Both the position numbers and the translations under genes were made by a program. The notes under the pieces were generated by a model. That model worked only from the letters and a program-made list of their open reading frames with translations, searched no databases and had not been told where the DNA came from. A stretch of DNA of 64,000 bases, taken from positions 29,869,250 through 29,933,249 of the forward strand of contig NC_069369.1 in assembly GCF_021730395.1 (NCBI RefSeq), read 5' to 3'. Below are positions 1-25,217 of the stretch, piece by piece. Each line of letters starts with the position of its first letter. Position 1 is the first letter of the stretch. Source of the DNA: Mercenaria mercenaria. Taxonomy: Eukaryota.

Positions 1-65
1 TTCAGTCGTTCAACAAAGGCACCATGTAGTTTGTTAGCGTGACTGGTTTCATCCATCATTGCATC
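1..65 (-). CDS. TEP1: Probable TEP1-like exon 25, partial and continuing beyond the window start (DAMMDETSHANKLHGAFVERL..)
   Basis: Acceptor ctacttttag| at 66-67 and an open frame to position 1. I cannot exclude an additional exon between 1615 and 65. Confidence 0.4.
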
Positions 66-1614
66 CTAAAAGTAGTTCATGACATAAATTTTTAACGAAA
101 ATAAAAATTTGACCAATATCCAATTCATTTCAGTATACAACACATACATTTAAATGGAATGAACCATCTTAATATGAGCAGGTTTTTTTAAATCCCTATT
201 TATTTTTTCAACACTGAAACTCCTTTTAAAATCAAACAATTAAGACAAAAGCAGACATCCCAACTTTTTCTGAATGCCAAGTGGGAGTTTTTGCTTTCCG
301 AAGTGGGAGATTGAGGTGTTCAAGTGGGAGATTTTATACCGCGGTAACTGTTCATGATAACGAAGCTTTTAACAAATCTAATGATAATATAAACTTATTT
401 GCCCTTATAAAATCACTAGTCTTAAAAAAATTCACTTGTCTATATCTTATTATTCGTGCATTTTTAATGTTTTGGAACAATAATACATGAAGCCTTCTGT
501 GCAAAATTAAATAGTTATGGCACTTTAAGCACTATGTCTAAATTCAAAACACCACTGAGAATTAAACCTGCACTTTTATTTCTTTTGTTGGAAAGAAGAC
601 TCCCCAGGTGAATTTTACATGACAAACAGTACAGCTGTTAGAACTGTAAAAACAAAATGTATATAGCTAAAAGAATAAAAGTTCAAGCAATAGAAAATTT
701 ACTGTTTGATTCTCATCCCTGTCAACCAGTATTTAAAACCCCTGGCTCAAATACTTTTATTGATCAAAATCCTGTTATCCAAAATTGAATGTCCGGGTAT
801 TGTTACACTTTCGTAGATTTGCCTAATCTCCAGTTAAAAGGATGTGTTTGACAAATTGTTATGATGCAAAGACAGTTTAACAGCATTTGATAGTAAGTGA
901 TATTACAATTTACCATGACATTTCCTCTTATCAAAATGATTTTAAGAGAAATGTTTTTTAAAACCTAGCAGCTAGGTTGACTTGGCGACCATCTACTTTC
1001 GATTTCAAAAAAGTACAGAAAAAGGTAAAGCCAGTATAATTTCTAATCTAAATTTGATTGAATTTAATTAGATATCTAATGTCTGGATTTTAATTTCAAC
1101 TGTGACACATTAATCAACACCTGGCTTTGTTAAATCGTGTAATAAACAATAATCAGCACGGGTAGAATAAGGTGCGAAAATATCTGAAAGCTGTTGTTTA
1201 CAGACTCGATACAGTATCAGATAGGCACAAAGAAGCGGATTATTTCATAATTTTTGTGTGTTTATGTTGTTTTGTTGTTTTTTTTTTTAATCGGGAGATT
1301 GAGACTTCTGATCGGGGTGATCGGGAGAAACCCGATCGGATTGGGAGAGTTGGGATGTCTGCAAAAGATGAGAAAATTCAAATCAGAAAATGACTAAAGA
1401 GAGGACAGCATATTTTTTTAATACTATTACACTCTTTAATCTATTATTTATTCATTCTGACAGAAAACAATATCTGTAATGTCTTGATTTTTAAATATAA
1501 TGCACAAGAGTCGATGAACGATTATTGGCTATAAACTTAAGATAATTTCTTAACAATGATTTTGTACATCAAAATGAGTCTACATGAAAGCATTTAAACC
1601 TGTAACCAATTTAC

Positions 1615-1735
1615 CTCATCAGGGTAGCATTTTTGAATACCATTCCAGAGGTTGTTCAATGCCCGTAGTCCGAACTGTTCCAGACCAGCAACAATAGGTT
1701 TACCATCCACAACACCACCCCAGTGACAGGGATAA
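1615..1735 (-). CDS. TEP1: TEP1-like exon 24 (NYPCHWGGVVDGKPIVAGLEQFGLRALNNLWNGIQKCYPDE)
   Basis: Acceptor ..atgttcttcag| and donor GATGAG|gtaaat. 1+40 codons. Confidence 0.65.
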
Positions 1736-1782
1736 CTGAAGAACATATTTCAGATACTTTTAACAGGTCTAAAATAAAACTG

Positions 1783-1936
1783 ATGCTAAATTTCTGTAAT
1801 GAACTTGTCCATCTTTCAATTTGGACAGTACCATTAACTGTTAAAAGGGGTGCTTACCAAAAAGATACTGACTGAATGGCGAACAGTGCAGATCATGATC
1901 AGACTGCACGGACGTGTCCAACATGTTAAGGTTTAA
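1783..1936 (+). mobile_element. Family A MITE copy with internal deletion (lacks the second palindrome arm)
   Basis: Shares gctaaatttctgtaatgaacttgtccatctttcaatttggacagtaccattaactgttaaaagg... with the other copies. Confidence 0.7.
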
Positions 1937-2143
1937 CATTTTCTGTAGATATCTCTTGTAAAAAACCAAAAACAATTGTGTATTAACAATCACAAAAGAA
2001 GGACATTATTAAGTAAGGAAAATTCTGTACTATTTGCTGATCTTTCTGAACAAGTGCTACAGCTCTCCATTATGTCTTGAAATTGTTTGTTGGACTACAC
2101 TGTTGATAAGCTCAAATTCAAGGCAAGTTTAAACGTAACATAC

Positions 2144-2257
2144 TTGTCAAAAACTTCAAGGCCACTAACGCGTATCCTGCGCTTCAACGCATCCATCTTT
2201 TCTTTATTTCTGTCACTTTCACACTCAAAGTCTTCACGGTATTTCTTTGGAATATCA
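2144..2257 (-). CDS. TEP1: TEP1-like exon 23 (SDIPKKYREDFECESDRNKEKMDALKRRIRVSGLEVFD)
   Basis: Acceptor ttacattctag| and donor TTTGACAA|gtatgt. 1+37 codons+2. Confidence 0.65.
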
Positions 2258-2825
2258 CTAGAATGTAAACATTTAAAACACTGTTAAATTATCTGTAAAA
2301 TTCACAGTCTATCTAGAAAGCCATTTCTCTAACATGAATTTTAACTATATACAGTCATTAATACTACAGAACAGTTTAACTTCTCACAAAAACGAATTTT
2401 TCAGTAAGTATAAACGATCCGCTGTTGAAAAACATAGGACTTGCAATGAAAAATTACAAAATTTAGGTCAATTAGCTCTTTTTTAATTGTGACCATAAGA
2501 AGCTGTTTTGGCAAAATCCACTAAATTTTGCGCCAAATTTTTTTAATAATTTCCCAGTAAACCTTTCATTTTCAATCACATATGATCCAAAGTATGACAA
2601 TTTAACAGCTCCATCAAGAAAAAAAAAATGTCACTTATTTCTAAGAAATTTTGAAGGGAGATTTAATAAAGTCAATTACAATTTTGTCACGACAGTGAAT
2701 TCTCATTTCACATCAATACTTTCTTTTCAGGCAAACTTTTCTTTTGTCATTCATGTAAATTTCAAGCTTTTTTTACTACTGAGCAAAATTACATAGTATG
2801 TATAAATAATATCTCCATCACAAAC

Positions 2826-22779: not shown

Positions 22780-22822
22780 CATCATTTACTTTCAAATTTG
22801 AATGTTCAAATTGTGATAATAC

Positions 22823-22933
22823 CTGATGATGATAATCCTGACCCAGACAACAAACTGCTGCTGGTTCCAAAACTTGTACCTTGTGTTCTAGTTGTCATGG
22901 AAACAGCAGACTGTCCCGAGAGTGAACCTGTAC
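22823..22933 (-). CDS. TEP1: TEP1-like exon 3, Ser/Thr/Gly-rich (TGSLSGQSAVSMTTRTQGTSFGTSSSLLSGSGLSSS)
   Basis: Acceptor tattttag| and donor CATCAG|gtatta. 111 nt, phase-consistent with neighbours. Confidence 0.55.
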
Positions 22934-23296
22934 CTAAAATATAAAACCGAAATAAGAATGCATTAAATAAATTAAAGTACTAAAAAAATCTATTCAGTCT
23001 GCAAAATCAAACTAACTGTAAAAAATCAACTGTAAAACATTGAAAAAAGTTCCCTCTGAATTGCTTTTTTCTGACTGAATGGTAACTCTACAGGCCCCAT
23101 TTGCCATCTTAACCTTGGTTTCCCATACATTATTTAACCATAGGCCAAGTTTCATTTGAATATCTCAATCAAAACTAGAGTAATTATGCAAGCATGACAA
23201 ATCCACCTGCCTGGTTTAAAATATTCATTGTAAGGTAGACTGTTATTACAAACACCTCAATACAATGTACATAAATGAACTTAACCAAGATTTAAT

Positions 23297-23466
23297 TGAA
23301 TGGTACTGTCCAAATTGGAAGATGAACTCTCTACCCTTCTAAATTTTTATAATGAACTTATCCATCTTCCAATTTGGACAGTACCATTAAATTAATACCG
23401 TTAAAAGGGGTGATTACCAAAAAGATACTGACTGAATAGCGAACAGTGCAGATCATGATCAGACAG
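23297..23466. mobile_element. Two head-to-head family A MITE fragments forming a local inverted repeat
   Basis: tggtactgtccaaattggaagatga.. inverted against ..catcttccaatttggacagtaccatt. Confidence 0.6.
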
Positions 23467-23532
23467 CACAGATTGAAAGTAATATATTATAAGAAAACAA
23501 ATGTCACTAACAGAGATAGAAAAAAATCATAC

Positions 23533-23733
23533 CATATTTCTGAAGCAGACCCGAAGAGAGCAGACCACCTGATAGAGTTGATTTCTTATCTGAGACGTCT
23601 TTTGTTTTCTTCTTCTCTACTGTTCTAGTGATCTCAGATTTACGTTTTCTCTGTGAATCGTCAGACTTTCTCTGTAAACTAGATTCAGTATTGGAAGATA
23701 CCAGTGAGCTGGACAGAAGCGAACTTGACAACC
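23533..23733 (-). CDS. TEP1: TEP1-like exon 2, Ser-rich low-complexity N-terminal region (LSSSLLSSSLVSSNTESSLQRKSDDSQRKRKSEITRTVEKKKTKDVSDKK...)
   Basis: Acceptor gtattttccag| and donor AAATATG|gtatga. Length 201 nt gives 2+66 codons+1, in frame with both neighbours. Confidence 0.6.
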
Positions 23734-25162
23734 CTGGAAAATACACATATAATATTTACACTTGCAACGAAAGTAACACTGATAAGATAAAAAGAATTTG
23801 TGTACAATAGAGTTCAAGAAAGTGAAAGAAGTTGGTAGGTCCAAAATTAAATGCTAAACAAAGCAAGAAGTTATCTTAACACAGTTTTTCAGTTTCAACC
23901 AAGAAAAACATTCATATAAAGGTCAAATAATATATTTCACTGTTAGTTCTTTTTCATATACAGTCAAATCTGTCTTTAAAAAAAACATCCTTGGGAGAGC
24001 CAAAATGTGGTCTTTATTTGGAGGTGGTCTTTATTCACAGTTAAAATACAATGCAAATGTTAAAATGGTAAACAAAACATGTGGTCTTTAGAGCCAGGTG
24101 GTCTCTGTTAAGAGGTTGTCTTTAACACAGGTTCGACTGTATACAAACATTGCTGACAGCACAAATATTACTGACAACAATCAAAACTGGTGAATGAATT
24201 TTTTTAACAAGGAATTTATCATCCAAGACAGAAGTATTCTCACAGGACATCCAATGCAACACAATAAAATAATTTTAGGCCAAGGCAAGTCATTCTAGAG
24301 CCAAAAAGTTGTAACACAAGCAAATTCTGGTCTTTTGTCACTTCTGTGAATGAACCATTCATCATCACAGGATTTGTCTAATAATGTTACCTGCAACAAT
24401 TGTAACATTTGGCATGGTAACTGAAAAGGAGTTACAACTTTACAATGAAAAATTCTCTCAATAACACATGTTAACTTCTCTCAATAACACATGTATTATT
24501 TTGTTAACATCTTTCAATGACACAGAACAGAACAGAACATACATTTTATTTTGACTTGTACATAGTACATCATCATATACATGTATGTAATATACAATTA
24601 AACATGTTATCACGTGTAAAAGTGTAAGTTAACATGGTGTTGAGGATGAATAATACATTCAATATTATAAAAAGTATCTATTAAAATGCTGCCAATCAAT
24701 CGTAGCCTGTATATATATAACCGTATACATTTAAGAGTACCATGTGAAGTAAATTGCCAAAAGGTTATATCAAGCATAAATAACAATATTGGTCGAAATG
24801 CAAAATTGACAAATGAATTAAGAAAAGTGTATTTATCTAACCATATGTACCACCATATGCCGAGGTGTCAAGCCGCCAGGAGAGGGTCACATTCAGACCA
24901 TCTTCATGGCAGCACACCCTGTGATGCGCAGTGAGCAACACATGAGTGCCCCCTACCCCACGGCAGTTAACATCTCTAAATACCACATCTGTTAACATCT
25001 TCCAACAAAATACCTGTTAATATCTCTTAATAACAATGTCTCTAAGTGACATACTTGTTACCTGAGTATTATCTCAACAACAAATCTGTTAATATTTTTA
25101 ATATTTCTCAATAAAATGTTAGTGTACTGAAAACTTTTCAGCAAATAAAAACTGTGACCTAC

Positions 25163-25217
25163 CATGACTGCCCGTCCACTTTGCCAACAGTGAACTTTCA
25201 GTCCCTGACATGGCAAC
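25163..25217 (-). CDS. TEP1: TEP1-like exon 1 with putative start codon (ATG at 25211-25209): MSGTESSLLAKWTGSH. Acceptor ..ctttactag| and donor |gtaggt
   Basis: Revcomp gives GTTGCC ATG TCA GGG ... CAT G followed by gtaggt. Frame joins the next exon (G+GG). The Kozak-like context is only fair, so an upstream coding or UTR exon cannot be excluded. Confidence 0.5.

Follow-up and report, generated by a model that had tools for sequence, protein, structure and literature searches.

A 25-exon TEP1-family gene model on the minus strand of a Mercenaria mercenaria genomic window

Does the left part of a 64,000-nucleotide stretch of Mercenaria mercenaria DNA (contig NC_069369.1; the whole stretch is called the window here) carry a genuine gene for TEP1 (telomerase protein component 1, a vault-associated protein)? 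The original prediction, made from the letters alone, had joined 25 GT-AG exons of the minus strand into one reading frame and assigned the product to TEP1. An independent rebuild arrived at the same structure, and minus-strand positions 1..25211 very probably encode 1277 residues, the N-terminal part of the product of an apparently intact TEP1 gene. A conserved TEP1 occurs in animals generally and in many protists, and public databases already contain mollusc copies; this is an ordinary, well-known conserved gene and not a new kind of feature.

The gene model was built from tblastn with database homologues together with a splice-site search. A first query of 711 residues was concatenated from obvious stop-free segments of the minus strand. 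GT/AG pairs were then enumerated around every tblastn match, frame compatibility was required, and the solutions were ranked by homology score. Homologues matched the window in strictly colinear order on the minus strand, from ~21160 down to ~1610, and nearly all junctions had one clear best GT/AG solution with good splice consensus; exons 1 and 25 were added by inspection. In the resulting model (minus strand, 25211..1) the 25 exons measure 49-444 nt and the 24 introns, each of them GT-AG, 374-2258 nt; the frame is single and continuous. The spliced coding sequence of 3833 nt contains no stop and yields 1277 residues, truncated by the left window edge. The window is AT-rich (G+C ~35%) and its open reading frames (ORFs) are short, as expected in a eukaryotic genome.

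The DUF4062 domain had been predicted to be split over exons 21 and 22, and it occupies the same exons in the rebuilt model, indicating that the rebuilt and the predicted model are in essence identical. Of the ten peptide motifs quoted in the original prediction, nine were located on the minus strand between 2993 and 19599; the tenth, DFDKYQLAKYN, is interrupted by the intron between exons 8 and 9 and becomes visible after splicing. The gene start had been placed at 25217; the start ATG is at 25211, 6 nt downstream. For exon 11, an acceptor at 15062 was rejected in favour of 15032 on the basis of homology score and of the intron position and phase in two annotated bivalve genes.

The conceptual protein matched Pfam TROVE (PF05731; E=7.1e-105) over residues 323-802, covering profile positions 19-442 of 442, with DUF5920 (PF19334, the TEP1 vWA-like region; E=1.7e-10, residues 836-1012) directly after it, and DUF4062 (PF13271; E=1.2e-15) at residues 1041-1149. 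This domain order, TROVE followed by vWA-like (DUF5920) and DUF4062, is specific to TEP1 and supports the assignment. The 711-residue query retrieved 174 database proteins at E<=1e-5, the best of them from Solemya velum (E=1.7e-280). Many matches are named 'telomerase protein component 1' or 'p80-like', and the precomputed Pfam domains of the homologues comprise TROVE, DUF5920 and DUF4062, with NACHT/STAND families also present in the longer entries. Among the matches listed, the closest sequences are Solemya velum ScPMuIL_001568 (P0001) and Saccostrea cucullata 'telomerase component p80-like' (P0008). The window protein is 58% identical to the Solemya protein, 50% to that of Saccostrea and 40% to deer TEP1 (P0013), with conserved exons reaching 60-89% to homologues, and BLASTP against deer TEP1 produced three aligned blocks (38-43% identity) spanning all three domains. 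The predicted TEP1 identity is therefore borne out by the domain order, by the alignment to mammalian TEP1 over all three domains and by the TEP1/p80-like closest relatives. The TROVE match, the best database match and the match to the human TEP1 structure described below lie far beyond chance.

The mammalian protein also has 30-residue TEP1_N repeats (PF05386), for which the 1277-residue product gave no Pfam match. Among the homologues listed PF05386 was seen in deer TEP1 only, so the repeats are not apparently a family-wide feature. Where mammals have them, the N-terminus of the window protein is rich in Ser (27%) and of low complexity, and SSLL motifs recur in it.

In 2026 DUF4062 was reported as a TIR-like NAD+ hydrolase (NADase) domain, 'NIR', that acts in the vault as part of TEP1, and roles have been described for the catalytic glutamate and three active-site arginines of the human protein (bioRxiv 10.64898/2026.05.01.722283; 10.64898/2026.09.04.749371). 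A search of the PDB returned a single strong match, 11gz_A, 'Telomerase protein component 1' (human, 220-residue chain; E=9e-69), aligned to model residues 1036-1253. Human numbering was deduced from the sequence of this chain, in which R15, R61, R83 and E115 equal human R908, R954, R976 and E1008; the numbering is self-consistent, since all four residues fall on R, R, R and E. In the HMMER alignment model residues R1049, R1095, R1117 and E1149 are identical to these four, and a kept NADase site in a distant invertebrate copy would fit an ancient origin of the activity in animals. The cited preprints also describe bacterial DUF4062/NIR anti-phage effectors (Swarozyc, Avs-NIR, Vulcan, Vesta) that belong to the same DUF4062 fold family and also have the catalytic glutamate. 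The link to these is at the domain level only, and as a spliced eukaryotic gene with TROVE and vWA modules the window gene is not a member of the bacterial NIR systems.

The vWA-like region was aligned with 35 homologues. Columns that canonically read DVSGSM, GGGTD and SDMM, which form the metal-ion-dependent adhesion site (MIDAS), read CDVGPNM, LQADL and TGGG in the window protein, and the later Thr and Asp ligands are gone; judged from this alignment, the metal site is degenerate. A textbook MIDAS (DVSGSM … GGGTD … SDMM) is present in protist TROVE-vWA proteins, one of which also matches Pfam vWA_Ro60 from that first strand; the DUF5920 region of the window protein aligns with this vWA_Ro60-matching part of the protist homologues. 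The peptide VIFDSSTSMY, which had been put forward as MIDAS-like, does lie inside the vWA-like domain but was rejected as the metal site: it stands ~45 residues past CDVGPNM, the true counterpart in exon 15, it aligns with the strand 'RIFSSPG', and DxSxS is absent even in the closest homologues.

Further support for the exon boundaries came from the annotated Saccostrea (L001) and Solemya (L002) genes, whose intron positions were obtained by mapping their own proteins on the genomic loci and transferred via protein alignment. The comparison covers junction 1 (exon 1/2) and junctions 5-23. For Solemya, 19 of 20 junctions are identical to the model in residue and phase; for Saccostrea, 13 of 15 are exact and the other two have the same phase 4-6 residues away, beside alignment gaps. 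This coincidence of positions and phases supports the model junctions without RNA-seq. The start-codon exon is supported by the motif SLL(A/S)KW (SLLxKW), common to Solemya (ESSLLSKWSL) and Saccostrea (MDTSGKSLLSKWSL); MSGTESSLLAKW of exon 1 resembles the N-termini of both proteins, and the Saccostrea gene agrees with the exon 1/2 junction in position and phase.

At the other end, exon 25 contributes 21 residues of the linker that follows the TIR-like domain before the window stops. Support for this exon is weaker than for the others: it has a phase-0 acceptor (ttttag/GAT) and resembles 'LATSLHEAFIENR' of homologue P0003, which precedes the P-loop of that protein, and the STAND/NACHT match of P0003 begins ~30-45 residues past the equivalent of the window end. 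Solemya has a further gene model immediately downstream on the same strand, with TEP1 beta-propellers (Beta-prop_TEP1_2nd). At this locus (L002 47061-47908) a 1190-residue N-terminal half lies next to a 1752-residue product with TEP1 beta-propeller domains, and because the downstream model carries propellers of TEP1 type, a single TEP1 gene has apparently been annotated as two in Solemya. It is reasonable to suppose that the NACHT/WD40 part of the window gene is likewise encoded past the left edge, as the original prediction had suggested. Relaxed tblastn of 120 homologues against 1..2200 and 23400..30000 found no TEP1 exons beyond the model and no NACHT part.

Several points weigh against taking the locus as an intact TEP1 orthologue. 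The gene model rests on genomic sequence, homology and splice consensus rather than on transcripts, and its C-terminal half (NACHT, WD40) lies outside the window, so that completeness of the gene is not demonstrable. Exons 2-5 correspond to one large exon in both bivalve genes, in which the three phase-1 introns that divide the Ser-rich N-terminus of the window gene, following model residues 83, 120 and 268, have no counterpart. Because the bivalve genes have a single exon there, the support for exons 2-4 consists of open frames, splice consensus and Ser-rich/SSLL composition. They are the least certain part of the model, and exon 3, to which no specific homology was seen, is the least certain exon. 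The donor of exon 2 is ambiguous between 23533 (ATG/gtatga) and 23569 (CAG/gtggtc), each in phase 1. In addition, no match exceeds ~58% overall identity, which leaves this TEP1-family gene a putative one-to-one orthologue, with a lineage-specific paralogue as the alternative. The catalytic glutamate and three active-site arginines are kept, and NADase activity itself would follow by analogy with human TEP1; RNA binding and vault association are likewise predicted from homologues.

Two other explanations have to be set beside an intact TEP1 gene. A TEP1-derived pseudogene or lineage-specific paralogue, rather than a functional orthologue, would be in keeping with a best identity of only ~58% to any database protein; against it, the conserved exons remain 60-89% identical to homologues while the introns are unrelated repeat-rich sequence. 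The three extra N-terminal introns relative to the two bivalve genes, and a 149-bp tandem duplication that copies the exon 16 acceptor and first 32 nt, could be counted in its favour, yet the 3833 nt of 25 exons run without stops or frameshifts, 24 of 24 introns are canonical GT-AG, and the catalytic and active-site residues are intact. Searching the window by tblastn with homologues found no second TEP1-like locus; loci elsewhere in the source genome fall outside the scope of an analysis of the window. We regard this explanation as improbable.

The locus might instead encode a TROVE-vWA-DUF4062 protein other than full TEP1, for example one that ends without the NACHT-WD40 half or is fused to something else downstream. 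While those domains do fall outside the window, the frame is still open at the GT donor that closes exon 24, exon 25 stays open and aligns with the linker ahead of the P0003 P-loop, and the Solemya gene has TEP1-type beta-propellers directly downstream on the same strand. Many TROVE database entries end early, and shorter protist TROVE-vWA proteins without DUF4062 exist; however, the short entries look like truncated or partial models (among the 120 matches listed of 174, none exceeds 1201 residues, several are labelled partial and others lie on contigs of a few kb; no full-length TEP1 entry is thus among those listed). A protein of this kind is, in our estimate, highly improbable, and the TEP1 gene remains the preferred reading.

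Compared with mammalian TEP1, the window protein shows the same domain order and conserves the active-site residues of the human TIR-like domain, but its TROVE domain is interrupted by two inserts rich in arginine-glycine-glycine (RGG). These RGG/RG-rich boxes lie at model residues 484-497 (exon 9) and 731-739 (exon 14), the first with poly-Lys and an acidic, Ser-rich segment at its flanks. The Solemya and Saccostrea homologues have both boxes, which are without counterpart in the deer TEP1 alignment. The two bivalve TEP1-like genes also share the SLLxKW N-terminus and nearly all intron positions and phases, and differ in the single large exon that takes the place of three additional phase-1 introns. 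Its divergence from them marks the window gene as that of another species or lineage; judged by sequence similarity, its source is a lophotrochozoan and probably a mollusc. The protist TROVE-vWA proteins and Ro60 possess homologous TROVE and vWA-like modules; they have an intact MIDAS, whereas the window protein combines a degenerate MIDAS with a DUF4062 NADase domain.

By analogy with the family, the TROVE/vWA module may bind small non-coding RNA, namely vault RNA and, in vertebrates, telomerase RNA, and place the protein inside vault particles, the TIR-like domain may hydrolyse NAD+, and the NACHT NTPase and WD40 propellers, encoded past the left edge, would drive or control oligomerisation. 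We put forward only tentatively, and consider rather doubtful, the further proposal that this invertebrate TEP1 functions as an NADase in association with the vault and shows lineage-specific features: two bivalve-shared RGG-box inserts in the TROVE ring that would bind RNA, three recently gained phase-1 introns flanked by repeats resembling short interspersed nuclear elements (SINEs), and exons 2-4 that could be skipped to give alternative N-termini. Exons 2, 3 and 4 are each flanked by same-phase introns and therefore each skippable in frame, and introns 2 and 3 carry SINE-like copies (region 21796-23733). If true, the proposal would extend the newly reported NADase activity of TEP1 to molluscs and hint at modified RNA recognition. 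The main value of the analysis is annotation, namely a secure identity and a junction-level gene model for the left 25 kb without RNA-seq. The conserved NADase site, the bivalve-shared RGG inserts and the extra N-terminal introns are of modest interest, and the RGG inserts (against mammalian TEP1) and the degenerate MIDAS (against protist TROVE-vWA proteins) are small, testable differences.

Table 1. Exons of the TEP1-family gene model and other features of the window (a slash within a sequence marks a splice junction; 'bivalve' refers to Solemya and Saccostrea)
Feature	Position	Strand	Content and support
Exon 1	25163..25211	-	ATG at 25211, MSGTESSLLAKWTGSH; phase-1 donor G/gtaggt
Exon 2	23533..23733	-	Ser/Lys-rich; weak compositional similarity to homologue N-termini
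Exon 3	22823..22933	-	Ser/Gly-rich (…SSSLLSGSGLSSS); good splice sites ttttag/G, CAG/gtatta
Exon 4	21796..22239	-	148-residue Ser-rich low-complexity region with Lys-rich end; donor AAG/gtaaac; lies in a stop-free frame of 162 codons, longer than any other outside the minisatellite; weak matches to P0001 and P0008 N-termini
Exon 5	21005..21171	-	Pre-TROVE region (…RFDKH…PRFTPPDRD…HDVNGLK); tblastn to P0008 E=3e-7, also P0001; 5/6 junction agrees with both bivalve genes
Exon 6	19537..19671	-	TROVE start (…RVALVTMAQKVICYDPEFVLK); homology, Pfam, junction match
Exon 7	18367..18528	-	TROVE (NIRTTANFMLALASHMPACRPYL…SDWIEVAEIYS); 77-80% identity to bivalve homologues, 53% to deer TEP1; junctions match
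Exon 8	17543..17639	-	TROVE (…FPDFDKYQL/A); homology and junction match
Exon 9	16509..16759	-	AKYN, then poly-Lys, RGG-box and acidic Ser-rich insert inside TROVE; insert common to Solemya and Saccostrea (44-51% identity)
Exon 10	15983..16134	-	TROVE; homology and junction match
Exon 11	14875..15032	-	TROVE (YPSSLDEFYRSRLPG…GNKASTWQELL)
Exon 12	12966..13075	-	TROVE (KLPFMAMLRNLRNLIKAGIS); 81-89% identity to bivalve homologues; junctions match
Exon 13	12310..12400	-	TROVE (SKQFPFRFFSAYEVL); homology and junction match
Exon 14	11364..11541	-	Second RG-rich insert (RGRGRGRGG), then basic stretch
Exon 15	8925..9105	-	TROVE end and first vWA-like strand; degenerate MIDAS position CDVGPNM (D809, codon 8985-8987)
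Exon 16	8227..8391	-	vWA-like domain; contains VIFDSSTSMY (not the MIDAS site)
Exon 17	7759..7839	-	vWA-like domain, weakly conserved; weak tblastn match, strong splice sites; 17/18 junction agrees with both bivalve genes, 16/17 exact in Solemya and 4 residues off, same phase, in Saccostrea
Exon 18	7146..7288	-	vWA-like domain (IDNLLLLTGGG…VNPDLLYVNVSFAG); homology, Pfam, junction match
Exon 19	6342..6413	-	vWA-like domain (PEHDNDIYISGFSDQILR); 94% identity to Solemya over 18 residues; junctions match
Exon 20	5477..5635	-	vWA-like domain end and linker; homology, Pfam, junction match
Exon 21	3971..4147	-	First half of DUF4062; R1049 and first two bases of the R1095 codon (human R908, R954)
Exon 22	2826..3074	-	Second half of DUF4062; R1117 (human R976) and catalytic E1149 (human E1008, codon ~2912-2914)
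Exon 23	2144..2257	-	C-terminal extension of TIR-like domain, covered by the human crystal construct; homology and junction match
Exon 24	1615..1735	-	YPCHWGGVVDGKPIVAGLEQFG…KCYPDE; end of region aligned to PDB 11gz
Exon 25	1..65	-	Partial, leaves window at left edge (DAMMDETSHANKLHGAFVERL); linker ahead of NACHT NTPase
SINE-like copies	~1783-1916, 3170-3383, 6848-7065, 8360-8806, 15680-15896, 16981-17202, 17264-17483, 20825-20971, 22551-22782, 23319-23473	both	~215 nt; at least 10 copies, all intronic
Second dispersed repeat	3624-3862, 5662-5850, 13732-13896	both	Three copies
131-residue ORF	13632-14027		Underlain by the second dispersed repeat
149-bp tandem duplication	8360-8658		96-97% identity
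27-bp minisatellite	9779-11280		Intron 14; ~55 copies, 87% identity
Tandem arrays	26158-27640, 29312-29669, 38637-39270, 62578-62971, 63346-63725		Periods ~153-166 bp
Tandem array	28734-29303		98/197-bp period
RG-containing ORF	55417-55767	+	
Pro/Ser-rich ORF	58203-58790	+	195 residues, built on a 33-bp repeat (58473-58742)

The introns had been described as full of transposable elements. SINE-like repeats are indeed present, but the description was overstated when set against the 24% of intronic bases found repeated by within-window self-comparison, a figure that is a lower bound for repeat content. Translations of the SINE-like repeat recur as '…DHDQPAHPCSLI…' and 'LTLLNFYNELVHL…'. Over the whole window ARAGORN found no tRNA genes and no Rfam family passed its gathering threshold, and since neither saw a tRNA-like head, these repeats could not be classed as tRNA-derived. 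The second dispersed repeat has no Pfam match and gives translations such as 'LANSMDPDQTA.MRRLVWIHAG'. The 149-bp duplication takes in part of a SINE-like element, the exon 16 acceptor and the beginning of exon 16; a decoy acceptor thus stands in intron 15, 149 nt upstream.

The largest ORFs of the region (402 residues on the minus strand and 397 on the plus strand; 9770-10991) were rejected as genes: they are artefacts of the minisatellite, whose 27-bp unit is a multiple of 3 in length and so yields spurious ORFs of ~400 residues on both strands. No Pfam family was found in any other stop-free segment of at least 55 residues on either strand of 1..25300 (the minisatellite interval, 9500-11330, left out), in agreement with the earlier statement that the TEP1 gene is the only supported coding content of the left 25 kb; a transposon protein or second gene in 1..25300 is not supported.

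The right part of the window contains further open segments, including a 127-residue stop-free stretch (…CVIPIDWTEESFRQYIEEAFP…) and the two ORFs listed last in Table 1. Three ORFs from 55-59 kb gave no Pfam match, and these segments may represent exons from an adjacent gene or may have arisen from repeats. The first of the tandem arrays lies ~950 nt upstream of the TEP1 start codon, and arrays with periods of ~160-166 bp recall what we take to be satellite or miniature inverted-repeat transposable element (MITE) families common in bivalve genomes.

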